DNA of 64,000 nt from Candidatus Lloydbacteria bacterium RIFCSPHIGHO2_02_FULL_50_18. Lineage in GTDB: Bacteria; Patescibacteriota; Minisyncoccia; Phycocordibacterales; UBA6899. The stretch is from NCBI GenBank assembly GCA_001821395.1, contig MHLM01000014.1:128001-192000 (forward strand), given 5' to 3'. Both the position numbers and the translations under genes were made by a program. The notes below the pieces were generated by a model. That model was not told the origin of the DNA. It ran no database searches and saw only the letters and a program-made list of their open reading frames with translations. Shown piece after piece: positions 1,339 through 47,731 of the stretch (position 1 is its first letter; each line of letters starts with the position of its first letter).

Positions 1339-1377
1339 TGTAAGACAAATTAAACCGTACTTTTTAAGGAGCTCTCT

Positions 1378-3929: not shown

Positions 3930-3930
3930 C

Positions 3931-4982: not shown

Positions 4983-4987
4983 TATAC

Positions 4988-5015
4988 AAAAACGCCCGTA
5001 AGGGGCGTTTTTTTG
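4988..5015. terminator. bidirectional rho-independent terminator (aaaaacgcccgtaaggggcgttttttt)
   Basis: A perfect GC-rich hairpin flanked by an A-run and a T-run. It sits between convergent ORF 4764-4982 (+) and rnr (-). Confidence 0.7.
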
Positions 5016-7118: not shown

Positions 7119-7133
7119 AGTAGGGTGTGGTAA

Positions 7134-7996: not shown

Positions 7997-8078
7997 TTGT
8001 GGTTGTATTATATCGTATTCTCACTAAATAAAGAACGGCGGCCGATGTGGCTGCCGTTGCGTTGAGCGTGACCCTGGG

Positions 8079-8408: not shown

Positions 8409-8468
8409 CTAAGACGCAGTTAAAACCATAAAACATCTTCTGTCAACCCCAGATTTAATCTGATTTTA

Positions 8469-8497
8469 TTGACCAATCGGAGGGCGTCTGCTAGTAT
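8469..8497 (+). promoter_or_regulatory. candidate sigma-70 promoter TTGACC-17-TAGTAT placed about 7 nt before the rpsP ATG (possible leaderless transcript)
   Basis: ttgacc at 8469-8474, a 17-bp spacer, tagtat at 8492-8497, and the rpsP ATG at 8505. Confidence 0.35.
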
Positions 8498-8504
8498 CTT
8501 TCCC

Positions 8505-8951
8505 ATGTTAGCAATACGACTTAAGCGCGTTGGACGCAAGAACGACCCATCATTCCGCATCATTGTGCAGGATCATCGCCGTTCTCCAAAAAAGACGAGG
8601 GGTGTGGCGGAGTTTGTCGGATCTTACGATGCACGCAAGGGCACTCCGCAAATCGATGCAGAGCGAGTGAAGTATTGGATCGGTCAGGGTGCACAGCCAT
8701 CCGATACCGTGCACAACCTCTTGGTTGATGCGAAAATCATCCCGGGAAAGAAGGTCAATGCGCTTAATGCAAAGACACCCGTCGTGAAAGAGGCTCCTAA
8801 GGTAGAACCAAAGAAGGTCGCTCCCGTAGCAGCAGCTCCCGTCGCCGAGGTGAAAGCCGAAGAGCCGGCACCCGTAGCAGAGGTGGCAGCACCGGTTGCC
8901 GAAGTGAAGGCTGAAGAAGCGACACCAGCGGCAGAAACTCCGGTCGCATAG
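8505..8951 (+). CDS. rpsP: 30S ribosomal protein S16 with Ala/Pro/Val/Glu/Lys low-complexity C-terminal extension
   Basis: MLAIRLKRVGRKNDPSFRIIVQDHRRSPKKTRGVAEFVGSYDARK...VKYWIGQGAQPSDTV is the canonical S16. The tail carries the repeats (A)PVAEVKAEE. The ATG at 8505 is preferred over the TTG at 8469. Confidence 0.9.
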   Translation: MLAIRLKRVGRKNDPSFRIIVQDHRRSPKKTRGVAEFVGSYDARKGTPQIDAERVKYWIGQGAQPSDTVHNLLVDAKIIPGKKVNALNAKTPVVKEAPKVEPKKVAPVAAAPVAEVKAEEPAPVAEVAAPVAEVKAEEATPAAETPVA

Positions 8952-8966
8952 GTCAAAACAACAATA

Positions 8967-8996
8967 TAAAAAAACGAGCACCGGTGCTCGTTTTTT
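8967..8996 (+). terminator. rho-independent terminator (aaaaaacgagcaccggtgctcgttttttg)
   Basis: Perfect hairpin plus T-run after rpsP. Confidence 0.7.
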
Positions 8997-9058
8997 GTTT
9001 GACGTTTTATTTTTCTCCTGTAGCGTGAAGTGAGAACAGTGTCATAAGGAGTAGATAA

Positions 9059-9463
9059 ATGACCATTGAAAAACAACCTGTTTCCGAAGTGTGGGCGCCA
9101 TTTTCTTTTGGCGAGCTCACTCCACACGTAAAGCACATTAAGTCACAGCTCTTGAATGGACATAGTGTGATCATCGAGCCTGTGTACGCTGATTCATCGA
9201 CCGGCTTTCTCGTCATCACCTATGACCACGGGGAGTGGAGTCTCGAAGAGATCATCGACACGTCGTTTCTTGATGGCGGACTGGGTACACACGAGCTTCA
9301 TGGTCTCTCCGTGCTTAGTCTCGGATCAGTCAATTATGAAACCCGTCTTATTGATGAGACGCTTAGTGCGGGCTTCATTGTCTGTCTCCTCTCAGACGTA
9401 TCGAAGGATGGACGCGTCGTAGGGTCGTACATGATACGAGCAAGTGTGTCGGATAACTCCTAG
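9059..9463 (+). CDS. hypothetical protein (134 aa)
   Basis: AAGGAG RBS 7 nt upstream. A terminator (agccgcccaattcgggcggcttttg) lies at 9471-9495. Confidence 0.6.
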   Translation: MTIEKQPVSEVWAPFSFGELTPHVKHIKSQLLNGHSVIIEPVYADSSTGFLVITYDHGEWSLEEIIDTSFLDGGLGTHELHGLSVLSLGSVNYETRLIDETLSAGFIVCLLSDVSKDGRVVGSYMIRASVSDNS

Positions 9464-20679: not shown

Positions 20680-23600
20680 ATGGAGGCGATCAATAAGAAG
20701 TTTTTTGGGCGCTATAAGGAATCGCTTGCAGAGATGCCAAATCTCGTGGAGATGCAGAAGCGTTCCTATGATTGGTTGGTTGAGGAAGGACTGAAGGAGC
20801 TCTTCAAGGAATTCTCACCGATCAGCGATTATTCAAAGAAGAAGTTCGATCTCGAGTTCATCGGATTCGAACTTTCACCCGCTCGTTTCGACGAACACTT
20901 CGCTCGTGAGAACAAGGTCTCGTATGAGACCCCGCTTCGCGCGCGTGTTCGCCTCACGAACAAGACGCTTGGTACCGTAAAGGAGCAAGAGGTCTTCATG
21001 GCGGATTTCCCGATCGCAACCGATCGCGGAACATTCGTCGTGAACGGTGTTGAGCGCGTCGTTGTGCCACAGCTCGCACGTTCATTCGGAATATTTTTTA
21101 CCGCACAGGAACTCAAAGCCGGTCGCTTCTTCGGAGCGAAGGTCATTCCCGCGCGCGGCGCATGGATCGAGATCGAGACGGACTCCGATGAGGTCATCTG
21201 GGTCAAGATCGACCGCAAACGTAAGTTCCCCGCAACCAGCCTCCTGCGTGTCTTCGGACAGTGCGGTGATGCGGAGATACTGAAAGCCTTCGAAGGCGAT
21301 CCCGACGCGAAGCGCTATATTGAAAAGACGCTTGCAAAGGATCCCGCAAAGACCCTTGAGGATTCGTACATCGAAGTCTATCGCCGCCTCCGCGATGGTG
21401 ATGTCACCTCAATAACAAACGCGCGCGAACTGATCGACGCGATGTTTGCCCGTGAGCGCTATGACCTTTCTCCCGTAGGTCGCGTTCGCTTCAACCGCCG
21501 TTTTGGAAAAGCGATGACTCCCGTCGCTCTTGAGACGCGCGTGCTCACCTTTGACGATCTCACGACGACCGTTGCGTATGTCGCGAAGTTAAATCACACC
21601 AAGGGTGCCGAGGAAGACGACATCGACCATTTGGGTAGCCGCCGCGTACGGTTCGTCGGAGAGATGCTTCAAGCAAAACTTCGTGTCGGTATGACACAGA
21701 TGAAGCGCAACATTCAGGACCGCATGTCGACCGTTGAAACGGATACCATTCTGCCGATCAATTTTGTTTCTCCTCGTCCGCTTCAGGCACGCCTCAAGGA
21801 ATTCTTCACGACCAATCAGCTTTCTCAGCTTATGAGTCAGGGGAACGTCCTTGACGAAGTGGAGCATCTCCGCACCACATCAGCCATGGGTCCCGGTGGA
21901 CTCACGAAGGAGCGCGCCGGACTTGAGGTCCGCGACGTGCATCCGTCACATTACGGACGCCTTTGCCCTATTCATACACCTGAAGGTCCGAACATCGGAC
22001 TCGTGCTGCGTTTGGCAACATACGCGCGCACCAATGCGTTTGGCGTCATTGAGACACCATATGTGAAGGTTGATGACGGACATATCACAGGAAAGATCGA
22101 GTATTTGAATGCACTTGAAGAAGAGCAGTTCATCATCGCGCACGCAGCCGTACCGTACGGCGCCGACATGATGCTTGAGTCTCGCGTTGAGGCTCGCGTC
22201 AAGGGAAATCCCGGTATCGTCAACCGCGCACAGGTCGACTACATCGACGTGGCGACAAATCAGGCATTCTCAACCGCTACCTCATCGATCCCGTTCCTCG
22301 AACACGACGATGCCAACCGTGCACTCATGGGTTCCAACATGCAACGCCAGGCGGAGCCGTTGGTTTCTCCAACCGCACCGATCGTCGCGACCGGAATGGA
22401 AGGACGCATTGCCCGCGACTCAGGCCGCGTGGTCATCGCTGAATCGGACGGTGTCATCAAGGAAGTCGACGCGCGACATATCGTCTTCAAGGACAACAAG
22501 GGTAATGAAAAAGAGTACAAGCTTTTGAATTACATCATGACGAACAACGCCAACTGTTATCATCAGCGTCCGATCGTTTCGGTCGGTGAGAAGATAAAGA
22601 AGGGTGATGTGCTCGCCGACACTTCGACATCAGATCGCGGAGAGATGGCGCTCGGACAGAATCTGCTCGTCGCGTTCATGTCATGGGGAGGAGCAAACTA
22701 CGAAGATGCCATCATTCTTTCGGAGCGTCTCGTTCGTGAGTCTGTGCTCACCTCTATTCATATCGAGAAATTCGTCGTGAACGTGCGCGACACCAAACTT
22801 GGACCCGAGGTCACCACTCCCGATATCCCCAATGTCGGTGAAGTCAAATTAAAAGACCTCGATTATGAGGGCATCGTGCGTATCGGCGCAGAAGTACGAC
22901 CGGGAGATATTCTGGTCGGAAAGATCACTCCGAAGGGCGAAGCGACACTCACGCCGGAAGAGCGCCTCTTGCGTTCGATCTTCGGTGAGAAGGCACGCGA
23001 CGTCAAAGACACCTCGCTCCGCATGGAGCACGGCAAGCGCGGTCGCGTCATCGGCGTGAAAGTATTCTCACGCGAGAAGGGTGACAACCTTGAGTCCGGT
23101 ATCATCAAGCGCATCTATCTTGAGATCGCACAGTTGCGTAACATCTCGGTCGGAGACAAGCTCGCCGGTCGTCACGGTAACAAAGGTGTTATTTCAAAGA
23201 TCCTCCCGCTTGAGGAAATGCCATTCCAGGAAGACGGAACACCGATCGACGTGATCCTTACCCCGCTCGGCGTGCCGTCACGTATGAACCTCGGACAAAT
23301 TTTTGAACTCCACTTGGGACTTGCTGCGCACAAGCACGGCTACCAGGCGGTCACACAGCCGTTCCTCGGCGTCACTGAAGAGGAGATCCGCGCAGAGTTG
23401 AAGAGCGCAGGATATCGCGAAGACGGAAAAATGAAGCTGTACGATGGCCGCACGGGCGAGTCGTTCGAGCAAGAAATTTCAGTTGGCTACATGTATATTT
23501 TGAAACTTCATCACATGGTGGAAGACAAGATCCACATGCGCTCCATCGGGCCTTACTCCCTTATCACGCAGCAGCCGCTCGGCGGAAAGGCGCAAGGAGG

Positions 23601-23850
23601 AGGACAGCGTTTCGGAGAAATGGAAGTGTGGGCGCTCCAGGGTTATGGTGCCGCTCATATCCTTCGCGAAATGTTGACCGTGAAGTCCGACGATATTCTC
23701 GGACGCTCCGCCGCGTTTGACGCGATCGTCAAAGGCAAGAACATCCGTGAGCCGAATCTCCCCGCAACGTTCAATGTCTTGCTCAATTCGCTTCGCGGAT
23801 TGTCCCTCGATATCGACCTGATGCACATTAAGGATGAAGAGACCAATTAA
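20680..23850 (+). CDS. rpoB: DNA-directed RNA polymerase beta subunit (short, 1056 aa)
   Basis: Conserved RpoB blocks throughout, for example GRYKVNKKLG-like, NMQRQA, GGQRFGEMEVWAL and the C-terminal region. Confidence 0.95.
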   Translation: MEAINKKFFGRYKESLAEMPNLVEMQKRSYDWLVEEGLKELFKEFSPISDYSKKKFDLEFIGFELSPARFDEHFARENKVSYETPLRARVRLTNKTLGTVKEQEVFMADFPIATDRGTFVVNGVERVVVPQLARSFGIFFTAQELKAGRFFGAKVIPARGAWIEIETDSDEVIWVKIDRKRKFPATSLLRVFGQCGDAEILKAFEGDPDAKRYIEKTLAKDPAKTLEDSYIEVYRRLRDGDVTSITNARELIDAMFARERYDLSPVGRVRFNRRFGKAMTPVALETRVLTFDDLTTTVAYVAKLNHTKGAEEDDIDHLGSRRVRFVGEMLQAKLRVGMTQMKRNIQDRMSTVETDTILPINFVSPRPLQARLKEFFTTNQLSQLMSQGNVLDEVEHLRTTSAMGPGGLTKERAGLEVRDVHPSHYGRLCPIHTPEGPNIGLVLRLATYARTNAFGVIETPYVKVDDGHITGKIEYLNALEEEQFIIAHAAVPYGADMMLESRVEARVKGNPGIVNRAQVDYIDVATNQAFSTATSSIPFLEHDDANRALMGSNMQRQAEPLVSPTAPIVATGMEGRIARDSGRVVIAESDGVIKEVDARHIVFKDNKGNEKEYKLLNYIMTNNANCYHQRPIVSVGEKIKKGDVLADTSTSDRGEMALGQNLLVAFMSWGGANYEDAIILSERLVRESVLTSIHIEKFVVNVRDTKLGPEVTTPDIPNVGEVKLKDLDYEGIVRIGAEVRPGDILVGKITPKGEATLTPEERLLRSIFGEKARDVKDTSLRMEHGKRGRVIGVKVFSREKGDNLESGIIKRIYLEIAQLRNISVGDKLAGRHGNKGVISKILPLEEMPFQEDGTPIDVILTPLGVPSRMNLGQIFELHLGLAAHKHGYQAVTQPFLGVTEEEIRAELKSAGYREDGKMKLYDGRTGESFEQEISVGYMYILKLHHMVEDKIHMRSIGPYSLITQQPLGGKAQGGGQRFGEMEVWALQGYGAAHILREMLTVKSDDILGRSAAFDAIVKGKNIREPNLPATFNVLLNSLRGLSLDIDLMHIKDEETN

Positions 23851-31910: not shown

Positions 31911-32126
31911 ATGGACAATCAGGATTTATTACAGACAATATCAAAAAAACTCGGTGTTCTAATTGCCCTACAGCTTCAAGAAAAATCAGAAAAGTTTTCT
32001 GTATCTGAGGGAGTGGAGTTACTTACTCGTTTTGGAATGACCCCAACTGAGATTGCAGATATTCTAAATACCTCAACAAACACCGTGAATGTTATGAGAT
32101 CTCGTCTTAAAAATAAAAAGAAATAA
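31911..32126 (+). CDS. mini HTH protein 2 of 7, 71 aa
   Basis: LGVLIALQL...LTRFGMTPTEIADILNTSTNTVNVMRSRLKNKKK. It starts 1 nt after the previous stop. Confidence 0.6.
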   Translation: MDNQDLLQTISKKLGVLIALQLQEKSEKFSVSEGVELLTRFGMTPTEIADILNTSTNTVNVMRSRLKNKKK

Positions 32127-32128
32127 GC

Positions 32129-32314
32129 ATGGAAAAAGAAATACTTGAACAAATCAAATATCAAAACAGTCAGCTAAGAGACATCTTTATCTTCTTACTT
32201 AGCAGAGAAGGGTATAACGATTCAGAAATACGAGCCATTGTCGGAAGTGTCGATAATAATAAAATTAGAAAAATAAGTGCAGGCCTCAAAAGAATTAAGA
32301 AACTTAAAAAATAG
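32129..32314 (+). CDS. mini HTH protein 3 of 7, 61 aa
   Basis: LRDIFIFLLSREGYNDSEIRAIVGSVDNNKIRKISAGLKRIKKLKK. Confidence 0.55.
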   Translation: MEKEILEQIKYQNSQLRDIFIFLLSREGYNDSEIRAIVGSVDNNKIRKISAGLKRIKKLKK

Positions 32315-32315
32315 C

Positions 32316-32486
32316 ATGATTAAGAAAAATCAAAATAATGAAAGTGATCGGACATCTGACTTGGTGATGAAATTACTTATACTTGAACTCGCTAAATTCG
32401 GTCTACCTCAAGGCGAAATAGCAAAGAAGCTTTGCGTAAACATTGTGGTTGTTAATGACTTTCTTAAAGGAATAAAACTTAAATAA
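32316..32486 (+). CDS. mini HTH protein 4 of 7, 56 aa (start reassigned to ATG 32316)
   Basis: MIKKNQNNESDRTSDLVMKLLILELAKFGLPQGEIAKKLCVNIVVVNDFLKGIKLK. It starts 1 nt after the stop of gene 3. Confidence 0.5.
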   Translation: MIKKNQNNESDRTSDLVMKLLILELAKFGLPQGEIAKKLCVNIVVVNDFLKGIKLK

Positions 32487-32487
32487 T

Positions 32488-32646
32488 ATGGCAAAAAAGA
32501 AAAGCGAGAAACTTGAACCACTAGAAGAAATTAAAAGGCTTCTTGTATTGGGGCTAGTAAATCAAGGCGTAAAAGGGAAAGATATTGCAGCTGTTCTTGA
32601 CGTTGATCCTGCAATAATTAGCCGACTTTTGTCTCCCAAAAAATAA
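32488..32646 (+). CDS. mini HTH protein 5 of 7, 52 aa (below the ORF-track cutoff)
   Basis: MAKKKSEKLEPLEEIKRLLVLGLVNQGVKGKDIAAVLDVDPAIISRLLSPKK. It starts 1 nt after the stop of gene 4. Confidence 0.5.
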   Translation: MAKKKSEKLEPLEEIKRLLVLGLVNQGVKGKDIAAVLDVDPAIISRLLSPKK

Positions 32647-32650
32647 ATTT

Positions 32651-32863
32651 ATGAATGAAAATACGGATATTACAAAACGTCTTGATGCAATTGCTTTGCT
32701 ACTTTTAAAACTACTGCCAAAGGAAACACTTGGACCCGATCAGGACAAGATACTATTTTTTAGTAGCCTCGGCTATTCAAATACTGAAATAGCAAAGTTG
32801 TTGCTCAAAACTCCAAACCAAGTTAAATCACTTCTCCACTTAGGAAAGAAGAAGAATCAATAA
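32651..32863 (+). CDS. mini HTH protein 6 of 7, 70 aa
   Basis: LDAIALLLLKLL...FFSSLGYSNTEIAKLLLKTPNQVKSLLHLGKKKNQ. Confidence 0.6.
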   Translation: MNENTDITKRLDAIALLLLKLLPKETLGPDQDKILFFSSLGYSNTEIAKLLLKTPNQVKSLLHLGKKKNQ

Positions 32864-32864
32864 T

Positions 32865-33443
32865 ATGACAGATCGACTTAATCCTAAAATAATTGTGATT
32901 CTTGAAGCCAAGTTGGGTAAAACTGCTGAACAGATAAGACCGCGATTGTCTGAGTTGCGTCGCAAACACAGCGGCTTAACGATGAATGCTGCGGCACAGA
33001 TGTACGCAATGTCTCACAACACATCTATTATGGGGAAACTTGATGTAGAAGATCGACAATCTCTAGCTACTGTTCAAGCCATTACGCAGGTGAGCGTGTC
33101 TAGTGTATCTAAGGTTGATAAGCGCACACTAAACATTAACAACTCCCCGATACACAATCTCTCATTTGGTGACCGAAACCAGGTGGGTCAAAGTGTTGTG
33201 AATATCGATAATTCCCTAGAAAAGCTATCTAAACAAATTGAAAAAAGTACAGTACTAACGGATGATGAGAAAAATGATTATAAATCCGACATAGAGACCA
33301 TCGCGAGTCAAGTTGGAAAAAGTAAACCCAACAGATCGATTATTAAAACGGCATGGGAAGGAATAAAAGCACTATCTGAATTAGAGGGTTTTGCTCAGGC
33401 TGTAGCTCACACTGGTACATTAATTCAGCACTTTATTTCATAG
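32865..33443 (+). CDS. mini HTH protein 7 of 7 with about 130-aa C-terminal extension, 192 aa
   Basis: The N-terminus KIIVILEAKLGKTAEQIRPRLSELRRK is related to the other six. The C-terminal extension is Asn/Ser/Lys-rich with no recognised motif. Confidence 0.55.
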   Translation: MTDRLNPKIIVILEAKLGKTAEQIRPRLSELRRKHSGLTMNAAAQMYAMSHNTSIMGKLDVEDRQSLATVQAITQVSVSSVSKVDKRTLNINNSPIHNLSFGDRNQVGQSVVNIDNSLEKLSKQIEKSTVLTDDEKNDYKSDIETIASQVGKSKPNRSIIKTAWEGIKALSELEGFAQAVAHTGTLIQHFIS

Positions 33444-33475
33444 CATGTAGCTCGCTTCGCTCACTAGAGGGATCA

Positions 33476-33484
33476 CCCCCCCCC
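33476..33484. repeat. homopolymeric C9 tract
   Basis: gatcacccccccccatatt lies between the HTH array and the downstream secreted-protein gene. Such tracts undergo slipped-strand length variation in many bacteria. Confidence 0.6.
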
Positions 33485-33507
33485 ATATTATTCCAATTTT
33501 TTTCTAT

Positions 33508-33547
33508 AATTACCATATAATACGCCATGGCGTATTATATGGTAATT
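33508..33547. promoter_or_regulatory. 40-bp perfect palindrome (aattaccatataatacgcc|at|ggcgtattatatggtaatt) containing TATAAT on both strands
   Basis: The reverse complement of the left 19 nt equals the right 19 nt exactly. It lies 50-110 nt upstream of the 33599/33620 gene and is a candidate operator overlapping a -10. Confidence 0.6.
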
Positions 33548-33619
33548 CGAAAACCAGTACATTCATGATTGATTTTGTGAATCTGTTGGCTGATTGCTTT
33601 GTTTACCGTAAAGTATAGT

Positions 33620-33922
33620 ATGAGTCGCATGAATAAATTTCTCTTTGGGCTTGCGGTTGTTGGGCTTTTTGGCATCGTGGCGCCTGAAACATCAGCTCAT
33701 CCGGGTAATACCGCCTCCGATGGTTGTCACTACTGTCGCACAAATTGTGCCAAGTGGGGAGAGGTAGAAAATGCAAGACACTGTCATGGAAGCAGTAGTT
33801 CTGCGGGTCGCTCAAGTAGAGCTAATGATGATGGGGGTAGTGGAGGATGGCTGTGGCCCATCGCGGGCATAGCTGCTGGAGCCGGTGTTGTATATTTTGG
33901 TGGCAAGAATAAGTCTAAATAA
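33620..33922 (+). CDS. small secreted Cys/His-rich protein with N-terminal signal peptide and C-terminal TM anchor (about 100 aa)
   Basis: MSRMNKFLFGLAVVGLFGIVAPETSA is a signal peptide. HPGNTASDGCHYCRTNCAKWGEVENARHCHG is a putative metal-binding cluster. A Gly/Ser linker precedes WLWPIAGIAAGAGVVYFGG (TM) and a KNKSK tail. The track ORF starts at a TTG at 33599; ATG 33620 is preferred. Confidence 0.6.
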   Translation: MSRMNKFLFGLAVVGLFGIVAPETSAHPGNTASDGCHYCRTNCAKWGEVENARHCHGSSSSAGRSSRANDDGGSGGWLWPIAGIAAGAGVVYFGGKNKSK

Positions 33923-34134
33923 AACGGAGACGAGCTCGCTAGGGGGGCAGACTCCTCCTTTTTCAAGCAATTATTTTGCGTATAAGGAAATTGGTGAAAA
34001 TTTTATGAAGCTGTTGCGCTTAGAGAAAACTGATAATATTAAATCAAGCTGTTATCGTGGCATGATTTAAGTTTAATAAAAGAAAACGGGATAAGCCCAC
34101 AACCTAAAACTTACTGATCGTATGGAATATAAAT

Positions 34135-34929
34135 TTGGAGGTGCTCGGGTGGCGATTGTGGTGTTATAGTAAAGACATGAATAGATTGAAGCAGGCCTTC
34201 GATACTAAAGAAAAATTATTTTGGTTGGGCTATTGGATTATCAGTCTTTCCGCTATCGTTGCATTCTTTTTTCGGGTTGTTCCGATGCAAGCGCAGCATC
34301 CCGAGAGGGCTTATGAGAATAGCGCCATTTTCGTTATTCCTTTTCTGGTTCTGTTTGTTGTATTGCGTGTGTTATCTAAATTTCGTGATTTAAACAAATT
34401 TAAACAGCGTTTGATTATTGTTTATCTTATCTGTCTTTTTGGAGCGGCAGTTTTGTTCTGGCCGTCTCGAGTGGATGATGCTCAGGTGTTACTATGGCTA
34501 CTCTTAATCTCATTTATTGCAGCCACCTTACTTGTTTTTGGATATTCACTCGTAAGAATAGAAGAATCAAAAAAATCATTTTTAATGAAATTTGTTTTAA
34601 TTTGCATTCTATTTTCCCCTGCACTTTTTGTCCCTGCCGATGTATGGATAAGTAGCGGGATAAAATTTCCGCATCTTTGCGAAACACAAACCATTAATCA
34701 TCCTGGTGTTCCGATTGACTACGTTTGTACGCCAGAGATGGGACTATGTGGACGAGGTCTACCTTCCGCCGGGGAAGGGTGGTCAGATACAAAATCCATT
34801 TGTATCTGGGATTTACAAGCTGGGTTAGGTCTCATTTTCAGTACCTTGTTCAGGTTTTTTTACTCATCCTTGATCGCAATCGTAATTACCATAAAAACGG
34901 GGAAAAGTGGAGATAAGTCCTCGACCTAA
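34135..34929 (+). CDS. hypothetical polytopic membrane protein (about 250 aa)
   Basis: Six or more hydrophobic helices; AT-rich codon usage like the upstream island. Confidence 0.55.
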   Translation: MEVLGWRLWCYSKDMNRLKQAFDTKEKLFWLGYWIISLSAIVAFFFRVVPMQAQHPERAYENSAIFVIPFLVLFVVLRVLSKFRDLNKFKQRLIIVYLICLFGAAVLFWPSRVDDAQVLLWLLLISFIAATLLVFGYSLVRIEESKKSFLMKFVLICILFSPALFVPADVWISSGIKFPHLCETQTINHPGVPIDYVCTPEMGLCGRGLPSAGEGWSDTKSICIWDLQAGLGLIFSTLFRFFYSSLIAIVITIKTGKSGDKSST

Positions 34930-34956
34930 AATTTCCCGACTGCAGGAAGCATAAAT

Positions 34957-35022
34957 TTGGAAGTACTCTTTGTGGTGATTGATTTCTGAAACGCGTGGTC
35001 AAATTTGCAAAGTCCTGATGGG
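34957..35022 (+). repeat. intergenic repeat family B, copy 1 (ggaagtactctttgtggtg-attgatttc-...tggtcaaatttgcaaagtcctgatggg) followed by a terminator
   Basis: Related copies at 35700-35744 and 37405-37468. The gaagtactctYYgtggt block also occurs at 4136-4153, 36990-37007 and 38860-38878. Confidence 0.6.
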
Positions 35023-35033
35023 ATATTTGTGAA

Positions 35034-35063
35034 TAAAAAAAGCCCCGCGGATGCGGGGTGAAT
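35034..35063. terminator. bidirectional terminator (aaaaaaagccccgcggatgcggggtg)
   Basis: GC hairpin with an A-run on the 5' side, located between convergent genes. Confidence 0.6.
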
Positions 35064-35071
35064 GGCAGGAA

Positions 35072-35425
35072 TTACCGAGCCGAGGACTGTATTTTTTCTA
35101 CTTCCTCGGCGAGTTTTTGTGCGAATGTGCGCAATGCTTCGATTTCTGCCCCATCGTTAACACCAACCATGTAGACCTCGCCGCCCCAGAAATGGTTCTT
35201 TACGCGAACCTCAGTGTAGACAGTGTCCCCCTCGATCGGTTCATGTGACAATGACTCGACTGCAAAATGCATATGTCGATAAGGTGAACATACGCCAAGC
35301 ACGAATGCGGGTTTTCCGTCCGCTAAGGTTCTCTTGATGACCGCTTTGTCGCCAGCAATTGCCTTGATGGCCTCGACGATATTGCGACCCATCACGCTCT
35401 TCATCTGTACAAGATCAGATCCCAT
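35072..35425 (-). CDS. hypothetical protein (117 aa)
   Basis: Clean ORF ending at the bidirectional terminator; no motif recognised. Confidence 0.55.
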   Translation of the reverse strand: MGSDLVQMKSVMGRNIVEAIKAIAGDKAVIKRTLADGKPAFVLGVCSPYRHMHFAVESLSHEPIEGDTVYTEVRVKNHFWGGEVYMVGVNDGAEIEALRTFAQKLAEEVEKIQSSAR

Positions 35426-35555
35426 AAATACCTCTTTAAATACAAAACTAACTCACATAATACAAGTTAAATTGTAAATGTCAAACAACATGAAAATGAG
35501 GTAAGCATGATAGAAAACGGGGATAAGCAAACGACCCCAGGATGGATTGGACGCC

Positions 35556-35699
35556 TTATCCGTTGATGATTTCTCCGCCATTCGGATGAAGTACTTGTCC
35601 TGTCATGAACGAAGAATCCTCTGACGCGAGAAATACGAATGATGGAGCGATTTCGCTTGGCTGTGCTGCGCGTTTCAAGATAGAATTTAAGTAAGTCCC
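35556..35699 (-). pseudogene. C-terminal fragment of a short-chain dehydrogenase/reductase (SDR), 5'-truncated at repeat family B copy 2
   Basis: The minus-strand translation ...GTYLNSILKRAAQPSEIAPSFVFLASEDSSFMTGQVLHPNGGEIING* matches the SDR C-terminus (G.PEEIA..V.FLASD.AS.ITGQ.L.V.GG). The frame hits a stop inside the repeat tggtcaaatttgc at about 35720. Confidence 0.6.
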
Positions 35700-35744
35700 A
35701 TTGATTCTTGATTCGTGTGGTCAAATTTGCAAAGTCCTGATGGG
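35700..35744 (+). repeat. intergenic repeat family B, copy 2 (ttgattcttgattcgtg-tggtcaaatttgcaaagtcctgatggg), followed by hairpin gtgccgcacattactgtgcggcgg at 35762-35786
   Basis: The 27-nt core is identical to copy 1. Confidence 0.6.
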
Positions 35745-35794
35745 GGAGTGGTGTTAAAAAATGTGCCGCACATTACTGTGCGGCGGGGAGGGGA

Positions 35795-36115
35795 TTAGCA
35801 GGTCGGTCGACGAATCCACCAGCCTGCATATTTGTCGTCAACAAGGTGGTTACGCCAGCCGTTCGGTCCAGCGAGTTCGGTTATCCGAACTCTCAGGAAT
35901 CTGGATGAAGCATTGTCCATTTTCATTGCGTTCGGCGGGATGAAAAGGAAGCCATCCGCGCTTACCTCTGCATCGCTCGGCACCATTCCCGTCAGGAGAA
36001 GTAATAGTGCATCAAACTCCTCCCGCTTTGTTTCATTGCGCGTGCTAGATTTCATTGCAAGTCTCCTTGTTCGTGGAAAAAGATCTGACCGCGGGATAAT
36101 AGCATGAATATACAA
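35795..36115 (-). CDS. hypothetical protein (possibly a gene remnant)
   Basis: ORF only. It lies in a degenerate region between a pseudogene and repeats. Confidence 0.25.
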   Translation of the reverse strand: MYIHAIIPRSDLFPRTRRLAMKSSTRNETKREEFDALLLLLTGMVPSDAEVSADGFLFIPPNAMKMDNASSRFLRVRITELAGPNGWRNHLVDDKYAGWWIRRPTC

Positions 36116-36236: not shown

Positions 36237-36713
36237 TTATTTCTTTTGTTCAAGTATTTTTCGGATATCTTTTTCGGCAGCACGGTCTGCCGCACGCTGC
36301 TCCTGGTGAGCAAAGAGGACCCGAACCGATGAGGCCAATTCTCTTGGCTCCATTTCAATGATCGCCCCTTTTGTGCAGAGTCCAAATTTCGTCGAATCGG
36401 TGCGATGTGCAACCAGGTAATGCTGATCTTCTTTTGCATTTTCCTCAAGCATTGCCCGCGCCAAGGTTCCATTCTTGTTGTTGTGTACAGAAACAATCGG
36501 CGTCAGATACGTGACCCAGCACAGAGAAGGTGTGGTGTCTTTTCCCGACAGAATATCGTTCGCGTTCACTGTGTTCGTGAGTATCGTGTTCGGGAACAAT
36601 CCGTTGGTGCCTATGGGGGGCAGTGGCTCCATCGAGCTCTTGTACCCGCTGTCTGTACAGCCGGCGGCGATGAGTGTGGTCGTCAGGACGAGGGCGGTGG
36701 TCAGATATTTCAT
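36237..36713 (-). CDS. lipoprotein (158 aa)
   Basis: Reassigned start MKYLTTALVLTTTLIAAGC has the lipobox LIAAG|C. The track ORF extends upstream to 36851 in the same frame with no signal-peptide logic. Confidence 0.6.
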   Translation of the reverse strand: MKYLTTALVLTTTLIAAGCTDSGYKSSMEPLPPIGTNGLFPNTILTNTVNANDILSGKDTTPSLCWVTYLTPIVSVHNNKNGTLARAMLEENAKEDQHYLVAHRTDSTKFGLCTKGAIIEMEPRELASSVRVLFAHQEQRAADRAAEKDIRKILEQKK

Positions 36714-36922
36714 TAAAGACTCCTTGCTGTTGAAAATTTTTTCTGCATGATTTCTATCACAGCAATCAACATGTGTCAAGAAAACGTAATAGTTCAATAG
36801 CTTGGACGCAAAGTATCCATTAAACTTCGCGTCATATGCCATACACAACAAACCCTGCCCTGCTCCGCGTCCGTCGCGATGCGGCTGCTATGAAAACGTG
36901 GACAGTCACAATTGATTTCTGG

Positions 36923-41494: not shown

Positions 41495-44400
41495 ATGCAT
41501 ATATTTTTCAAATCATTGGTAGTGGGTGCGCTCTCCCTCTCTATACCATTTTTTGTCTCAGCAGAGGAAATACAACCAATTGTACCAGTATCTCAAATAC
41601 TCACAGATACGAATGAGATGAAGCCTATCGTGTTAGCCACTGTCAATCTTCAGAACGCCACCTCCACCCAAGAAGGACACACTTTCACTATCTCCTTCGA
41701 TCTGACAAATCGCGTGGGTGTCCAGCCTGGAGTGAAATATAGCGTAGTACTTATTAAGGAAACAGCTGTTGGGCAGACGATCGTAGATGAGCACGTATAT
41801 GACGAAACGATCAATCTGGGTGAAAATAGTTCTGTTCATAAAGTGGTCAATTACGCGCCCCCAACGAACATAGTGGGAGAGTACCTCCTCTTTATTTCTA
41901 GTGAGAACACAAGTGGATTTCCATTTGGACAAGCGACACTTGGAAAGGTGATCCTCAAGAGGAGTGATGCAGCTCAAAACCCTATTGTTATTGATACCGT
42001 AAGTTGCTATCTCACCGTAGAAGGGGAAAAAGATCAGCCTCACTATGCGCCTCGCCAGGGAGTCGATATCTCGATCGTTGAAAAATTACAAAGCAATTGT
42101 ATCGTAGAAAATACCTCGAATGTTCCAACTACCGCCACTCCTTCTTTTGTCACTCGCACCCGTTCCAATTTTGGTGAGATAGTATCCACGCAAGGTGGTG
42201 ATATGAACGCTGTTATATTTGCGCCGAATGAAAAAAAGACAATAGTAACATCTCTTCCAATATCGCTTACTCCACAATCTTACAATGTAAATCTTAAATA
42301 TGGAGCAACGAGTAATGAGATCTCCTACCACTATGTGATACAGGGCGCAGGCGGGACGATACAGAACATTCTTTTGGACAAAGATGCGTACGTCAAAGGG
42401 GAGACCGCAAATATTTCATTCATGTGGTCGCCTTCTGCCGATGGGTTCCCATACTCTCGTCAGGGGGCAAGTACTCAATTAACAAGTCCTTCCTTTGCTA
42501 TTTCGCTTGTTGATGAAACGGGAAATTCTTGTGCCAACTCCTTTAATCAGCCTCTATTGAGTGATGATATTCTTGTCCAAGCAAAGATAGCTATTATCTC
42601 TTCTTGTATTCATCCAAGAGCGAATGTGACGCTTGCCGATGCGAAGTTGGGGGTATTGGCACAAATGTCTTTTGAAACGGCCACGACGCCATCCCCATCA
42701 ATTCCGCAAAAAGAAACAAATACAAAAAACATCCTTGCGGTGATGCTGGTTATCCTTCTATCGGTGATATTTGCTTTTTTGATCTATCGTAATAAAAAGG
42801 TTCACTCTCTTCCCGTTGGCCCGCTTGTACTTCTCTTCGTGATCGGGTTCATGTTCACTCATGCGGAGATTGCGAGAGCGGATACGTTTTATACCGGATT
42901 TACTGGTACTACTCTTGTGAACGTATCGCTTAACAAGACTTCGTATGCCCCGGGGGAGCCGATGACAATAACTGGGTCAATAACCGTTGCTGGTTGTGCA
43001 AACTCAGGAGATTGGTATCTTCTTAAATACGGTGTCGATCTAGCTGTGGGCCCCTTTACCGGAGCATACCTCATTAGTCAGCGAATCGCTGGGGGGAGCA
43101 CTATTTTTTCTTCAGCCACTGTACCTGCCCCGCTGTTGGCAGGAAGTCATAGAGTCAATTTTCTTACTACGACAGGTTGGGTTGTCAGCAAATCTTATTT
43201 CTTACCTTTCACTGTTAATACTCCTTCTTGTACTGGCGCGACTCCCTGCGGTACTCCGGGTTCTTGCTTCGCAAAATCCGGCTGCAATAACGTCTGTGGC
43301 TCTACCGCCGTCAACGACTGTGCGGGTACCTGCGGAGGAGGCGCCGTAGACTACAATGGTGCAGTTGCAGGCTGTGGTTTCCCTGCCTGTACTGGAGCGA
43401 CTCCCTGCGGTACTCCGGGTTCTTGCTTCGCAAAATCCGGTTGTGATAACGTCTGCGGCTCTACCGCCGTCAACGACTGTGCAGGTACCTGTGGAGGAAG
43501 AGCTACCGACTACAATGGTGCAGTTGCAGGCTGTGGCGGACCACTTTCCATCACCGCAAACCCTGTTGCACCGATCACGCTTCCCACCACGACATTCACC
43601 TCTACGTATTCACTTACGAACGGTACGTCCGCGAACACGAATTGTCGTTTGCTTGATAATGCAAGTAATCCGCTCACCGGATATACTCCGTGCTCGGGGA
43701 GTATCGCCTACAACACTCCTGCTTCACCCGGTGCGTATGGTTATAATGTCCAAGCATTTAAGTCCTTGACCGGTGAGATCAAGACAAGCGCATTTACCGT
43801 GACGGTGAATGGTGCTGGCTGTTCCGCTACAACGATCGAGAACTGTGCACTTCCCGCAACCGCGACCGGAGGAAATGCGGGGAGTTGTAATAGCGGATAC
43901 GTCGGTTCCTGTAATTTCTCGTGTATGAACCGCGTATGGTCCTCGAATTCAAACTCCTGTACATTGATCCCTGCTCCCATCGTTACCGCCACAATAAACG
44001 GCGCGGCGACCGCATCGATAGGCTCGGGCGCACCATTCACCCTCGCAATGACCTCAAGCGGTGTTGGAGGGGGAACATGTTCATGGAGCCGCTCATCGGT
44101 TGCAAACAATCTCGGAGGAGATTTTGGGTTCGCGGCGATCCCCACAGCGAACGGGGGACCACAACAGTTCAACACCAACAATGTATTCTCCGGATGGAGG
44201 GGCCCAACAAAAGTGACTTGGATATTCAAATGTGACAATGGGTTCGGGCTCTCCACCTCAAGGTCTGTGGAACTCACCATTGCCGCTCCTGTTCCAGCGA
44301 TAACAATCAATCCGATCAATAATCTGCTTTTCGGTGATGTTCCGCTCAATAATACTCGTATTCGGACGTTCACCATCACAAATACCGGAGACATCGGTTC

Positions 44401-44935
44401 ATGGCTTATTGGTACGGTGACGACCGGAAATCCTCGTTTTGTCTGTACGGAAAGATGTACCTACGACCTTGGTGCGGGGGAAGTACAGACTGTGACCGTT
44501 ATCTTCACCCCTGGCGTTGTCGGTCCGATCTCTGCGTCAGTACTTTTCAACGGTAATCCCTCTCCCACGTTAATCTCTTCGGGAAACGGAATCGCACCAG
44601 TCATCATTGTTCCGGCATCGGTCGATTTCGGCAATGTCCCGATTATTCGCACTAAGGACCTCAGCTTTGTCATCAAAAATATTGGTACGGTAGATCTGGG
44701 CCTCACTACTTTTTGGGGGTATAATGCGCCGTACACCTGTATCTCCATGGCGACCTGCGCTCAAAACGGGATCAATCTTGCTCCAAACGTCGTGAACACG
44801 GTCACGTTACGGTTCTCTCCGACGGCCGCCATCGTCTACCCGACGCAAATAGGTACACTTTCCGGTCAGCCGCTTTACGCCATCCCTATCAGCGGTACCG
44901 GAGTGCAGCCGGTGTTCAATGTGAAGGAGCAGTAA
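41495..44935 (+). CDS. large surface protein (1146 aa) with a signal peptide, an internal TM hairpin, tandem Cys-rich repeats and Ig-like (ASPM/choice-of-anchor-D-like) C-terminal domains
   Basis: N-terminal signal MHIFFKSLVVGALSLSIPFFVSA|EE. Internal segments ILAVMLVILLSVIFAFLIYRNKK and VGPLVLLFVIGFMFTHAEIARA are TM-like. Two tandem 53-aa repeats PSCTGATPCGTPGSCFAKSGC(N/D)NVCGSTAVNDCAGTCGG... are present. C-terminal motifs FGDVPLNNTRIRTFTITNTG and VDFGNVPIIRTKDLSFVIKNIG are beta-sandwich-like. Confidence 0.8.
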   Translation: MHIFFKSLVVGALSLSIPFFVSAEEIQPIVPVSQILTDTNEMKPIVLATVNLQNATSTQEGHTFTISFDLTNRVGVQPGVKYSVVLIKETAVGQTIVDEHVYDETINLGENSSVHKVVNYAPPTNIVGEYLLFISSENTSGFPFGQATLGKVILKRSDAAQNPIVIDTVSCYLTVEGEKDQPHYAPRQGVDISIVEKLQSNCIVENTSNVPTTATPSFVTRTRSNFGEIVSTQGGDMNAVIFAPNEKKTIVTSLPISLTPQSYNVNLKYGATSNEISYHYVIQGAGGTIQNILLDKDAYVKGETANISFMWSPSADGFPYSRQGASTQLTSPSFAISLVDETGNSCANSFNQPLLSDDILVQAKIAIISSCIHPRANVTLADAKLGVLAQMSFETATTPSPSIPQKETNTKNILAVMLVILLSVIFAFLIYRNKKVHSLPVGPLVLLFVIGFMFTHAEIARADTFYTGFTGTTLVNVSLNKTSYAPGEPMTITGSITVAGCANSGDWYLLKYGVDLAVGPFTGAYLISQRIAGGSTIFSSATVPAPLLAGSHRVNFLTTTGWVVSKSYFLPFTVNTPSCTGATPCGTPGSCFAKSGCNNVCGSTAVNDCAGTCGGGAVDYNGAVAGCGFPACTGATPCGTPGSCFAKSGCDNVCGSTAVNDCAGTCGGRATDYNGAVAGCGGPLSITANPVAPITLPTTTFTSTYSLTNGTSANTNCRLLDNASNPLTGYTPCSGSIAYNTPASPGAYGYNVQAFKSLTGEIKTSAFTVTVNGAGCSATTIENCALPATATGGNAGSCNSGYVGSCNFSCMNRVWSSNSNSCTLIPAPIVTATINGAATASIGSGAPFTLAMTSSGVGGGTCSWSRSSVANNLGGDFGFAAIPTANGGPQQFNTNNVFSGWRGPTKVTWIFKCDNGFGLSTSRSVELTIAAPVPAITINPINNLLFGDVPLNNTRIRTFTITNTGDIGSWLIGTVTTGNPRFVCTERCTYDLGAGEVQTVTVIFTPGVVGPISASVLFNGNPSPTLISSGNGIAPVIIVPASVDFGNVPIIRTKDLSFVIKNIGTVDLGLTTFWGYNAPYTCISMATCAQNGINLAPNVVNTVTLRFSPTAAIVYPTQIGTLSGQPLYAIPISGTGVQPVFNVKEQ
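43229..43546 (+). repeat. two tandem 159-bp direct repeats (about 93% nucleotide identity) inside the surface-protein gene
   Basis: tgtactggcgcgactccctgcggtactccgggttcttgcttcgcaaaatccgg... starts at 43229 and again at 43388. Confidence 0.8.
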
Positions 44936-45092
44936 ACGTTCGAGTCGGGAACCAATTGCAGACAGACCACGCGTTCACGTGTGGCCTGTTTCTGCTTCAT
45001 GGCGGATCGATCATTGCTTTTAGTTTGTCTGGATACGCAAGAGTGCGGATACTATTTTTTACGCGAGAAAATGATGTAGAAAGCAGGGTATA

Positions 45093-45882: not shown

Positions 45883-46332
45883 TTATCTGCGTCGCCGGAA
45901 AGTATCGGCTGCGTCCCCAGCTTCTATGATGTCTCTCACACAATTTGAGTAGACCCATGGTATGTCCGAGAACTGCGCGCATGCCGTAAAGTAGTCGACG
46001 TGCTCCGCGGGTGCATAGTTCATGCGGGGCGGATAATATATGCGCGGTTGCGGGTAATAGACCGGCGGCGGTAGATAGTAGACGGGAGGCGGCACATAGA
46101 CCGGCGGGGGAATATAAGGCGGAGCATAATTCTCGTGAATGATATATGCCCCCAATCCGCCGATAATGAGCGGTGCGATCCAATTCCCTCGATCATGGTG
46201 CTGATATTGCGGTCTTTGCTGCGGATACTGTTCATGATGGTGCCGCGGGTTAGCTTCAGCAGTTCCGACGATCACAAGTGCAATCGCTGTGACTACTGCG
46301 TAAAAAATCAATGACTTGTTCAATGATCTCAT
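45883..46332 (-). CDS. secreted Pro/Tyr-rich repeat protein (149 aa)
   Basis: Reassigned start (AGGAG 7 nt upstream) gives signal peptide MRSLNKSLIFYAVVTAIALVIVGTAEA. This is followed by a His/Gln-rich stretch and PP(V/I)YYPP repeats (PPPVYVPPPVYYLPPPVYYPQPRIYYPP). Confidence 0.65.
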   Translation of the reverse strand: MRSLNKSLIFYAVVTAIALVIVGTAEANPRHHHEQYPQQRPQYQHHDRGNWIAPLIIGGLGAYIIHENYAPPYIPPPVYVPPPVYYLPPPVYYPQPRIYYPPRMNYAPAEHVDYFTACAQFSDIPWVYSNCVRDIIEAGDAADTFRRRR

Positions 46333-46548
46333 GTGATACTCCTGTGTGTGACGATGGACGAACTGCAAGCATTCTACTACTAATTAGATCAATCGTCAAT
46401 TATGAACACTGGTTGGCAATACAGCTGAAGCAGGGCGTTTTCAAAAAATGCTAGACATGTTGGATGCTTATTCCGGCATAGGATGGTGGAGAAAGAAGAA
46501 TCAAAAGACACACGACAGCATCATGATGTAGCGTATCTTATGACTCGC

Positions 46549-47652
46549 TTATTTATAGTAGATGCCGCCAAGTATGCGTTTACCGCGCGCGCCCGTTGCC
46601 TTGGGAAGGTTCCCCGGTCGCCGTAGCAGCGTCTGTTCTGCAAGCCATGCGAATGCAAGCGCTTCGACGTCTTGGGTGCCGACATTGAGCTCGTCCGTCA
46701 CCGTGATCCTTGCCTCCGGAATGAGCTCGCGCAATCGATTGCGTAGGGCAGAGTTCTGCGCTCCACCTCCGCAGCAATAGACCTCTGTCGTACCGCGGCA
46801 ATAGGCGTGGATGGCGCCGGCGATGGCGTGCGCCGTAACGGCAAGTAGCGTCGCCTGCACGTCGCATGCTGTATATTCAGGCTTCAGCGCGTGTTCATAC
46901 CACGCAGCATTGAACAGGTCGCGCCCGCTCGATCTTGGCGGCTTCTTCTTGAAATAGGGGTCGGCGAGGAGCCGTGAGAGAAGAGCGGGGATGACCGTAC
47001 CCGACGCTGCCCATTTCCCGTTCTTATCGAATGCCATCTTTTTGTTCTTCCGTATCCATGAATCCATGAGCATATTACCCGGTCCGGCATCAAATCCGAT
47101 GGTCGCTTTGACGGGGTTGAGATCGGTGATATTCGCTATGCCGCCGATGTTCAGGATCACACGATGAACTCTGGGGTGACGAAACATGACATCGTGGAAT
47201 GCCGGCACAAGCGGCGCACCTTCCCCACCCGCGGCAATGTCACGGCTACGAAAGTCGGAGACAACGGTGATGCCTGTTAATTCAGCAAGGAGAGAGGGAT
47301 TATTGAGTTGCAGTGTAAAACCAAGATTCGGGCAATGCAGTATCGTCTGCCCGTGACATCCGATCGCCGAAATATTTTTGGCGGGAAGGTTGGCATTCGC
47401 GAGCACGGCGGTGATGCTTTTTGCATACAAATGCGCCAACCGGTTTGCGGTTTTCGCGGCAAGCGTGAGCGAGCCCGCTTTGTCTTCGTGGAGGAGAAGC
47501 AGCGTTTCACGGAGTCGTTTGTCGAATCGGACGAACGCTGTCGCACGCACGGTAAACGGAGACTTGCTTAAGTCGGCGAGAACGGCGTCCGCGCCATCGA
47601 GGCTCGTGCCCGACATGATGCCGATGTAGTATGCTCGTTTTGCTCGACTCAT
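46549..47652 (-). CDS. anmK: anhydro-N-acetylmuramic acid kinase
   Basis: The N-terminus YYIGIMSGTSLDGADAVLADL matches AnmK (FIGVMSGTSLDGVDVVLA in E. coli), and the ASKHA fold runs throughout. The start is set at the ATG giving MSRAKRAYYIG rather than the longer track ORF. Confidence 0.8.
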   Translation of the reverse strand: MSRAKRAYYIGIMSGTSLDGADAVLADLSKSPFTVRATAFVRFDKRLRETLLLLHEDKAGSLTLAAKTANRLAHLYAKSITAVLANANLPAKNISAIGCHGQTILHCPNLGFTLQLNNPSLLAELTGITVVSDFRSRDIAAGGEGAPLVPAFHDVMFRHPRVHRVILNIGGIANITDLNPVKATIGFDAGPGNMLMDSWIRKNKKMAFDKNGKWAASGTVIPALLSRLLADPYFKKKPPRSSGRDLFNAAWYEHALKPEYTACDVQATLLAVTAHAIAGAIHAYCRGTTEVYCCGGGAQNSALRNRLRELIPEARITVTDELNVGTQDVEALAFAWLAEQTLLRRPGNLPKATGARGKRILGGIYYK

Positions 47653-47731
47653 CTCTTCAGTGTACCCGCGCCAAAAGGAGCTCACAAGGAGGGGTATTTC
47701 CGTTTCTCGGCGTGTGGCGAGGAAATGAGTC

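Follow-up and report, generated by a model that had tools for sequence, protein, structure and literature searches.

Precursors that are cut at an internal signal peptide are best known from enveloped viruses, where the orthobunyavirus Gn-NSm-Gc and flavivirus prM-E proteins have an ectodomain, a stop-transfer transmembrane segment (TM), a short basic cytoplasmic loop, a signal-like TM, and a signal-peptidase site, in that order, and where the upstream product keeps the TM hairpin. The processing of the bunyavirus precursor at internal signal peptides has been described (PMC6784171). Here, we found the same order of elements in a 1146-residue protein encoded by the stretch of DNA under analysis (the window, 64,000 nucleotides (nt) from Candidatus Lloydbacteria bacterium RIFCSPHIGHO2_02_FULL_50_18, contig MHLM01000014.1, positions 128,001 to 192,000), a surface protein precursor in which an upstream part A, proposed to keep the hairpin as in the viral proteins, is fused to a downstream part B. 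Nonetheless, the viral precursors are eukaryotic-virus proteins, rely on the signal peptidase of the endoplasmic reticulum, and have no sequence or fold relation to the window protein, which would use bacterial Sec and signal peptidase I (SPase I), with a cleavage that we infer. Closer to home, the cytochrome b/c1 precursor FbcH of Bradyrhizobium japonicum (reportedly from Thöny-Meyer and colleagues, about 1989-1991) is said to be likewise one bacterial open reading frame (ORF) that gives rise to a membrane protein and a second exported protein via an internal signal-peptide-like segment. It reportedly differs in belonging to a respiratory complex, in its unrelated sequence, and in being a single lineage-specific fusion, as opposed to over 1,000 clusters whose outer domains vary.

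Gram-positive adhesins of the Alp/Rib and MSCRAMM types have in-frame, long-period repeats whose copy number changes between strains by recombination. The exposed part of the window protein also bears such in-frame, size-variable repeats, but there is no LPXTG/sortase signal, the N-terminal module is separate and comes with a TM hairpin as anchor, and the repeat is an eight-cysteine one. Moreover, the window protein shares two domains (residues 928 to about 1140) with choice-of-anchor-D (NF012200) and ASH-HYDIN (PF15780, PF22544) proteins, though here they are the last 200 or so residues only, are absent in most family members, and are found without their usual companions, i.e., PEP-CTERM, LPXTG, or the type IX secretion system (T9SS). 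The elements themselves, which are Sec signals, Ig-like domains, and size-variable repeats, are known, whereas their combination in a large family restricted to the Patescibacteria (candidate phyla radiation, CPR) appears to be undescribed.

The ORF at 41495..44935 has an ATG start, encodes 1146 residues plus a stop, and its product is a fused A-B surface protein precursor. Outside the repeat array, this protein is identical in independent assemblies of three further samples (L001, L002, and L003), so an assembly artefact specific to the window is not its source. In keeping with the cleavable N-terminal signal that an earlier reading of the DNA (the original prediction) had proposed, the protein begins with MHIFFKSLVVGALSLSIPFFVSA↓EE (the arrow marks a predicted cut), with V at -3 and A at -1, and an N-terminal hydrophobic segment is found in 26 of 28 homologues, the two exceptions being N-terminally shorter. 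The features are as follows.

41495..44935, + strand: whole ORF, the fused A-B precursor (ORF call; identity in L001-L003 outside the array)
41495..41563, + strand: N-terminal Sec-type signal peptide, residues 1-23, …PFFVSA↓EE (sequence reading; hydrophobic segment)
41627..42676, + strand: ectodomain of A, with three beta-sandwich (Ig/FnIII/MG-like) domains at residues 45-154, 164-282, and 287-394 (AlphaFold2 (AF2) model)
42731..42799, + strand: TM1, a stop-transfer anchor reading ILAVMLVILLSVIFAFLIY, with RNKK as its basic tail, residues 413-435 (hydrophobicity; AF2 helix 410-433; end of gene A in split relatives)
42788..42880, + strand: putative internal signal peptide (-3/-1 rule; basic loop; homology to the signal peptides of split gene B)
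42881..43219, + strand: B1, the conserved first beta-sandwich of B, residues 463-575, DTFYTG…VSLNKTSYAPGEPMTITGS… (predicted local distance difference test (pLDDT) of about 85-95 in two AF2 runs; B1 profile)
43229..43546, + strand: two tandem 159-bp units (43229-43387 and 43388-43546), each with 53 residues and eight Cys (Tandem Repeats Finder; unit comparison)
43547..44275, + strand: variable middle region, residues 685-927, boundaries approximate (comparison with homologues; low AF2 confidence)
44276..44914, + strand: two choice-of-anchor-D/ASH (HYDIN-like Ig) domains, about residues 928-1022 and 1030-1140, the second boundary approximate (hidden Markov models, HMM)
44909..44932, + strand: C-terminal tag PVFNVKEQ, in the P-x-[FY]-x-E-x-COOH form (motif common across the family)
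44967..44984, + strand: terminator-like hairpin, 32 nt past the stop codon (consensus match only; weak)

At the centre of this protein lies a membrane hairpin. TM1 with its basic tail reads ILAVMLVILLSVIFAFLIYRNKK and attains a 19-residue Kyte-Doolittle mean of up to 3.08, and a second hydrophobic segment (TM2), VGPLVLLFVIGFMFTHAEIARA (residues 441-462, nt 42815-42880), ends with ARA↓DTF; no further hydrophobic segment above threshold occurs after residue 462. The original prediction had placed the second signal eight residues beyond the TM and its stop-transfer residues, within one polypeptide; the hairpin was correctly recognized, and is conserved in 155 of 157 relatives, while the spacing is instead five residues (VHSLP). 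As had also been predicted, there is no in-frame start between the two segments, since loop codons 432-441 (CGT AAT AAA AAG GTT CAC TCT CTT CCC GTT) include no ATG, GTG, or TTG, and no stop codon either. A separate B made from an internal translation start is ruled out for this reason. Rejected as well was LPXTG-type sorting of part A, as no conserved motif is found among relatives in the sequence ahead of TM1 (…PSIPQKETNTKN), and TM1 in the fused form is internal, not C-terminal.

Residues 432-462 have the makings of a Sec-type signal peptide. Here, the n-region (RNKKVH) is positively charged through RNKK, the h-region (SLPVGPLVLLFVIGFMFT) consists of 18 uncharged hydrophobic residues (mostly 14-24 in relatives, where G or P is common towards the end), and the c-region (HAEIARA) presents small neutral residues at -3 and -1 (A-R-A). 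Based on rules, conservation, and homology, we predict an SPase I site at A462↓D463 (nt 42880/42881), from which mature B would be expected to give the semi-tryptic N-terminal peptide DTFYTGFTGTTLVNVSLNK. A gene for SPase I was not found within the 64-kb window, which is only part of the genome.

We observed that this arrangement is widely conserved. The first homology search returned three near-identical proteins together with 25 relatives at 30-54% identity, which align with the first half of the query only (about residues 1-575) and whose named members belong to Moranbacteria and Pacebacteria. At about residues 390-470, all 28 of these homologues carry TM1, a loop rich in K/R, and TM2. Within the 26 diverged members, the loop invariably has 3-7 K/R and at most two D/E, the -1 position of the predicted cut is occupied by A (25 members) or G (one), and the -3 position by A (19) or V (seven), while D, T, and F follow at +1 to +3 in 19, 23, and 16 members, respectively. 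Searching a profile of these 26 members against 1.84 billion representative proteins produced 4,797 matches at E<=1e-3, 2,354 at E<=1e-10, and 1,169 at E<=1e-30, the weakest of which may have just generic Ig-like columns in common; the family thus numbers at least 1,169 clusters (50% identity, E<=1e-30). For 157 diverse representatives, all of them Patescibacteria, the order TM1-basic loop-TM2 is present in 155, and the other two stop shortly past TM1. In the subset with the stricter pattern (119 of the 157), A is at -1 in 112 and A or V at -3 in 83 and 26, respectively, and both the -3/-1 rule and the basic loop are kept in each of the 119 scored. The window protein has every part of this A-B module, which is to say a three-domain A, TM1, a basic loop, TM2 with AxA↓DT(F), and B1. 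Literature searches returned no description of the family, or of internal signal peptides in CPR proteins, and it appears to be a very large, CPR-restricted, and hitherto undescribed one.

With the hairpin in 155 of 157 representatives, a sequencing or fusion artefact is therefore excluded. Even in the wider sense, that two genes were joined by an error of sequencing, assembly, or frame, or that the hydrophobic stretches are buried in a soluble fold, we regard an artefact as extremely improbable. The two-gene versions of the module in other lineages might speak for it, but the fused frame is identical in the independent assemblies of three other samples and recurs in 155 of 157 relatives, and the loop is without a stop or start codon. 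Moreover, Kyte-Doolittle means in a 15-residue window peak at 2.4 to 3.3 for the segments, a K/R cluster flanks them, and, when the proposed AlphaFold check on the domains was run, they emerged as isolated helices outside the beta-sandwiches and not as buried elements.

The two-gene versions are also informative about TM2. Our locus scan (one genome per species, with 10 closer sequences as the query) gave 16 loci, nearly all labelled Patescibacteria (Moraniibacteriota, Adlerbacteria, Nomurabacteria, ‘Saccharibacteria’, Elulimicrobiales, and UBA5272), and in L007, L010, L013, L014, L016, and L018 the module consists of two adjacent same-strand genes divided in the loop. Gene A (346-447 residues, the shortest, in L010, being truncated by the contig end) stops just past TM1 and its basic tail with real stop codons, e.g., …AYAILRLRKKEVENK and then TAA TAA in L013. 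Gene B starts 4-25 nt downstream, or with an 8-nt overlap in L007 (ATGTATAA), and opens with Met, followed by basic residues, a stretch of hydrophobic ones, and a small-x-small site, after which mostly comes DTF. Examples are MKINKKFILSLLLPAMFISITKLASA↓DTF, MKKQNLKRILILIIPVFLFLGGYEAKA↓DTF, …FTPSHAAKA↓DTF, and …MFPGEVRG↓DTA, and also MKKTLLKILPFFIIIFSVKIANA↓DTR and MKFKFSFLITVCCMSVMFPGEVRG↓DTA. In fact, an L007 gene B aligns with residues 436-600 of the window protein (E=3e-7), and the B1 profile matches stand-alone B genes in L007 (two), L010, L014, and L018, with E values from 6.5e-21 to 4.7e-5. Because the split gene B proteins are Met plus this same segment plus DT(F), TM2 of the window protein is homologous to a genuine, ordinary N-terminal Sec signal peptide. 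This homology, together with the shared AxA↓DTF site, favours what the original prediction had offered as its alternative, namely that the protein is processed into two products.

The A-only split form (about 440 residues) makes up a stable family in its own right, with at least 33 clusters, almost all in the range of 410-471 residues. Since a crude neighbour-joining tree places L013-L019 in one clade but nests the split forms L007, P0103, and P0123 separately among the fused ones, it suggests several fission or fusion events. In L007 (Adlerbacteria), one A gene is found between two stand-alone B genes (3022-5808, 5812-7149, and 7142-9244), with both B signal peptides ending AKA↓DTF, and two fused paralogues stand in tandem in L008 (671-5218 and 5845-8682); these arrangements suggest that one base can serve several outer parts.

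As the best explanation for all of this, we favour, with some but by no means full confidence, an A-B polyprotein that is cut at the internal signal peptide and has a docked, variable outer part. Part A (residues 1-435) would then consist of the signal peptide, three beta-sandwiches on the outside, TM1, and the cytoplasmic RNKK, and part B (residues 463-1146) of B1, the variable Cys-rich and Ig-like modules, and the short conserved tag, with the basic loop, TM2, and HAEIARA acting as a complete internal Sec-type signal peptide. The first signal would initiate the export of A, TM1 would halt the transfer, and TM2 would restart translocation, whereupon SPase I would cut past A462 to leave membrane-anchored A (with the TM1-TM2 hairpin) and free B in 1:1 amounts. 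Docking of B on A would probably be through B1, such that A serves as the base and B as the exposed and fast-changing binding part, and the in-frame 159-bp array would change length via unequal recombination or slippage, thereby diversifying the exposed part between strains.

The evidence for topology is identical for an uncleaved protein, this being what the original prediction chiefly had in mind, in which TM2 is a reverse signal-anchor and both ectodomains are on the outside, tethered covalently by the hairpin. Such a protein would explain the retention of B, and as the fused form is the commonest among top relatives (155 of 157), a covalent link could be advantageous. We nonetheless consider it unlikely, given that A or V at -3 and A at -1 are conserved and preceded by a helix-breaking G or P, as SPase I needs and as a mere anchor gives no reason for. 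Moreover, the same site closes an ordinary N-terminal signal peptide in split gene B, and the h-region is short (14-24 uncharged residues in most members, often with G/P) and thus more signal-like than anchor-like.

Regarding the domain structure, the AF2 model of residues 1-578 (26-sequence alignment) has a mean pLDDT of 81.9 and a predicted template modelling score (pTM) of 0.76, with domain blocks mostly at 80-95. Here, isolated helices are seen at 410-433 and 442-453, residues 451-458 are low in confidence directly ahead of the predicted cut, and the fourth beta-sandwich (B1) spans 462-574. For residues 1-927, Pfam and NCBIfam gave no match, and the PDB sequence search only a chance one at E=0.73. 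Beyond B1, the distal domains differ among homologues (TSP1, CARDB, fn3, Kelch, choice-of-anchor D, and others), and the architecture is that of a conserved base with a variable tip. For the window protein, the variable middle region contains an Ig-like module common to the homologue P0008, a small Cys-rich module common to P0011, and a further beta-rich module. The C-terminal domains, in which the original prediction had seen ASPM/choice-of-anchor-D-like motifs, match NCBIfam choice_anch_D (NF012200; 51.3 bits vs a cut-off of 45, in two stretches, the best at residues 928-1019) as well as Pfam ASH (PF15780; 31.4 vs 27), HYDIN_VesB_CFA65-like_Ig (PF22544; 42.6 vs 25.5), and Cep192_D4 (PF22073; 44.8 vs 35.5), and by these curated cut-offs they are genuine choice-of-anchor-D/ASH domains. 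As for cysteines, 31 of the 35 are in part B, which fits an oxidising extracytoplasmic location and also the enrichment in CPR genomes of an MdbA-like disulfide oxidoreductase that serves secreted proteins (PMC6744442).

Within B, the tandem array is where strains differ. Tandem Repeats Finder places it at 43229-43536 (period 159, 1.9 copies, score 525, 91% vs consensus). Its two units, W1 and W2, are 86.8% identical, with 21 mismatches in 159 nt; nine of the differing codons are synonymous and five are not, and the longest identical run that the units have in common is 44 nt. Two tandem Cys-rich repeats of 53 residues had been predicted correctly, but with six Cys each, where we count eight, and with about 93% identity between units, which the measured value does not support. 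For the eight-Cys repeat, too, the Pfam, NCBIfam, and PDB sequence searches gave no match.

The near-identical proteins have 1199, 1093, and 1077 residues, as against 1146 in the window. Their contigs come from JGI sample 3300025323 (L001) and from ENA ERZ27254752 and ERZ27254767 (L002 and L003), and the array has three units in L001, one in both L002 and L003 (four contigs taken together), and two in the window. All three match the window at 100% over the 1734 nt of the gene that precede the array and over about 2.5 kb beyond it, and L001 and L002 also do so over 6000 nt upstream of the gene; the departures are a single 2-nt difference at the array junction in L001 and a figure of 96.8% for L003 in an ungapped upstream comparison. 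With one, two, or three units between identical flanks, the array therefore varies, and its copy number differs in otherwise identical genomes, as judged from short-read alleles, so that the repeat is indeed expandable and recombination-prone, as had been proposed. It had also been called recent, which does not hold for the window units (13% diverged) but does for those of the three-copy allele, which differ by 1-7 nt.

The alleles also carry traces of how they may have arisen. The single-unit allele has its first 9 nt from W1 and the remainder from W2, which is the product expected of a crossover or slippage between the two. The L001 units are W1, W1 with 7 nt changed, and W1 with 1 nt changed, and the array ends in …GFPAC/ITANP rather than …GGPLS/ITANP, hence the alleles differ beyond copy number. 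Contig names of the type k141_… suggest assembly with 141-mers and, if so, a maximal common run of 44 nt means that a collapse of two units by the assembler is not expected. Because the unit length of 159 nt is 3 x 53 and all alleles are in frame, with no frameshift on/off switching, the outcome is size and antigenic (sequence) variation and not phase variation. A separate observation concerns the 1077-residue protein (P0003), which is without 69 residues between the short repeats …GAAC/ACG… and …GAAC/TGT… (about 43616-43843 in the window, residues 708-783) and also has scattered substitutions; this gap points either to a second place in the outer part that is prone to deletion or to an assembly of lower quality.

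RpoB of the window is 95% identical to that of a ‘Candidatus Giovannonibacteria’ metagenome-assembled genome and 89% to ‘Candidatus Lloydbacteria’, with the other matches from Parcubacteria/Paceibacterota, a placement among the ultra-small, Parcubacteria-type CPR bacteria that sits well with the partner-associated lifestyle guessed at originally. The nearest relative of the surface protein outside its own population has about 50% identity, and in the first half only; the gene is either very fast-evolving or missing from the assemblies of close relatives. Read side by side, the variable distal domains, the strain-level repeat alleles, and this value of about 50% vs the 95% of RpoB point to an exposed interaction surface, from which we infer an adhesin role.

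The same architecture could also belong to a structural envelope or S-layer-like component, or to a scaffold for capturing nutrients or ligands, and not to a partner adhesin. The very wide spread of the family in Patescibacteria (1,169 clusters at E<=1e-30) is consistent with this, as are the housekeeping surroundings (PGK, TIM, NusA, and S15 in L013; rpoBC, dnaG, and rpoD elsewhere in the window), the good conservation of the A part, and the generic Ig/MG-like arrays among the fold matches. We view such a role as possible, if on the doubtful side. The highly variable distal domains, the strain-level alleles, and the gap between about 50% for the nearest non-self homologue and 95% for RpoB argue against it, as all three agree better with diversifying selection on an exposed surface for interactions than with a lattice-forming protein, and no S-layer domain (SLH or similar) was found in the Pfam and NCBIfam scans.

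Several points also weigh against our favoured reading of a cleaved, docked, and partner-binding protein. The predicted cleavage is drawn from rules, conservation, and homology, and the conservation of D-T-F at +1 to +3 exceeds what SPase I needs; it could reflect a further recognition step, or just the strand with which B1 begins. Once released, B would need to be retained on a cell without an outer membrane, and its docking on A is suggested only through co-conservation and the high pTM. Fold searches with the models gave generic beta-sandwich or Ig/MG-like array matches only, and the AF2 model of the C-terminal 684 residues has a mean pLDDT of 45 and is confident for B1 only, on account of which the binding function is put forward as a tentative one. 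For the copy-number differences, the source is a set of short-read metagenome assemblies made from different samples. Finally, no sortase, peptidase, or other conserved functional neighbour was found across the 16 loci, where the flanks are housekeeping genes.

The very end of the protein carries a conserved tag. Despite unrelated C-terminal domains, Glu is present at -2 to -4 from the C-terminus in 105 of 157 family members, and the tag takes one of two forms, either …C-x(4-7)-W-[KR]-E-V-[AST]-P-COOH (e.g., NWKEVAP) or …P-x-[FY]-x-E-[FIQNK], to which the window protein conforms with PVFNVKEQ (protein end …GVQPVFNVKEQ). No TM follows the tag, no NCBIfam model covers it, literature searches found no paper on a KEVAP-type tag, and HMMs detected none of the known C-terminal anchors (PEP-CTERM, LPXTG, or the T9SS C-terminal domain). 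Possibly, the tag is a signal for sorting or docking that is particular to this lineage. We also noticed the tag at the end of secreted proteins that adjoin family genes and are without A and B1 (1234-3507 and 4175-5935 in L004, 102-572 in L008, 12-2072 in L011, and 8-1063 in L017). A bolder and quite speculative idea is that the A-B module forms the core of a Patescibacteria-specific system of surface building, in which the polyprotein is cut, A docks one or more interchangeable B proteins, and the tag is a new sorting or attachment signal with its own processing enzyme; the single A gene flanked by two B genes in L007 supports the interchangeability of B.

The window is chromosomal, with rpoB (1056 residues; 20680-23850), rpoC (1226 residues), dnaG, rpoD, and genes for an SMC protein, RNase R, and SufBD/SufS. 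A megablast of the gene against a phage database found no match, tRNA and Rfam scans of the window found nothing, and the counts from its promoter and terminator scan were not above shuffled expectation. The neighbours of the gene encode a TPM-domain protein, a VTT/DedA-like protein, AnmK, and a GNAT protein, and are syntenic within the same species only; likewise, the conserved-neighbour analysis of the 16 loci found housekeeping synteny within one clade only. The TPM-domain protein (PF04536; 40139-41155, - strand) has a signal, a TM, and a long low-complexity tail rich in Ala/Ser/Gly, and its gene, which is transcribed divergently, adjoins the surface gene in all same-species contigs but not in other lineages. 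At 46549-47685 (- strand), there is a full-length anhydro-N-acetylmuramic acid kinase, AnmK (E=7e-130), in what is a reduced CPR genome, and it might act on muropeptides that are taken up from a partner. In between, at 45883-46368 (- strand), lies a 161-residue ORF whose N-terminal part is TM-like and which has a Pro/Tyr-rich repeat (PPPVYVPPPVYYLPPPVYYPQPRIYYPP); a shorter gene is called here in same-species contigs. Farther away, the GC content at 32001-36000 drops to 0.39-0.43 from about 0.49 elsewhere, and the ORFs there (34135-34929 and 36237-36851) have no Pfam match; this may be a foreign or fast-evolving segment.

Patescibacteria account for a large part of the diversity of bacteria and are believed to live in attachment to other cells. 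To our knowledge, almost nothing is known about their surface proteins beyond type IV pili. Most protein families that show enrichment in CPR are in fact unannotated membrane or extracellular proteins (PMC6744442). The gene described here offers a testable entry to the CPR surface, as its split and fused forms define two functionally linked partners. It is also a likely case in bacteria of polyprotein processing at an internal signal peptide, and its outer part differs between otherwise identical strains. If the cleavage and A-B docking hold true, the family would be a natural target for studies of partner attachment and a strain-typing marker in metagenomes.

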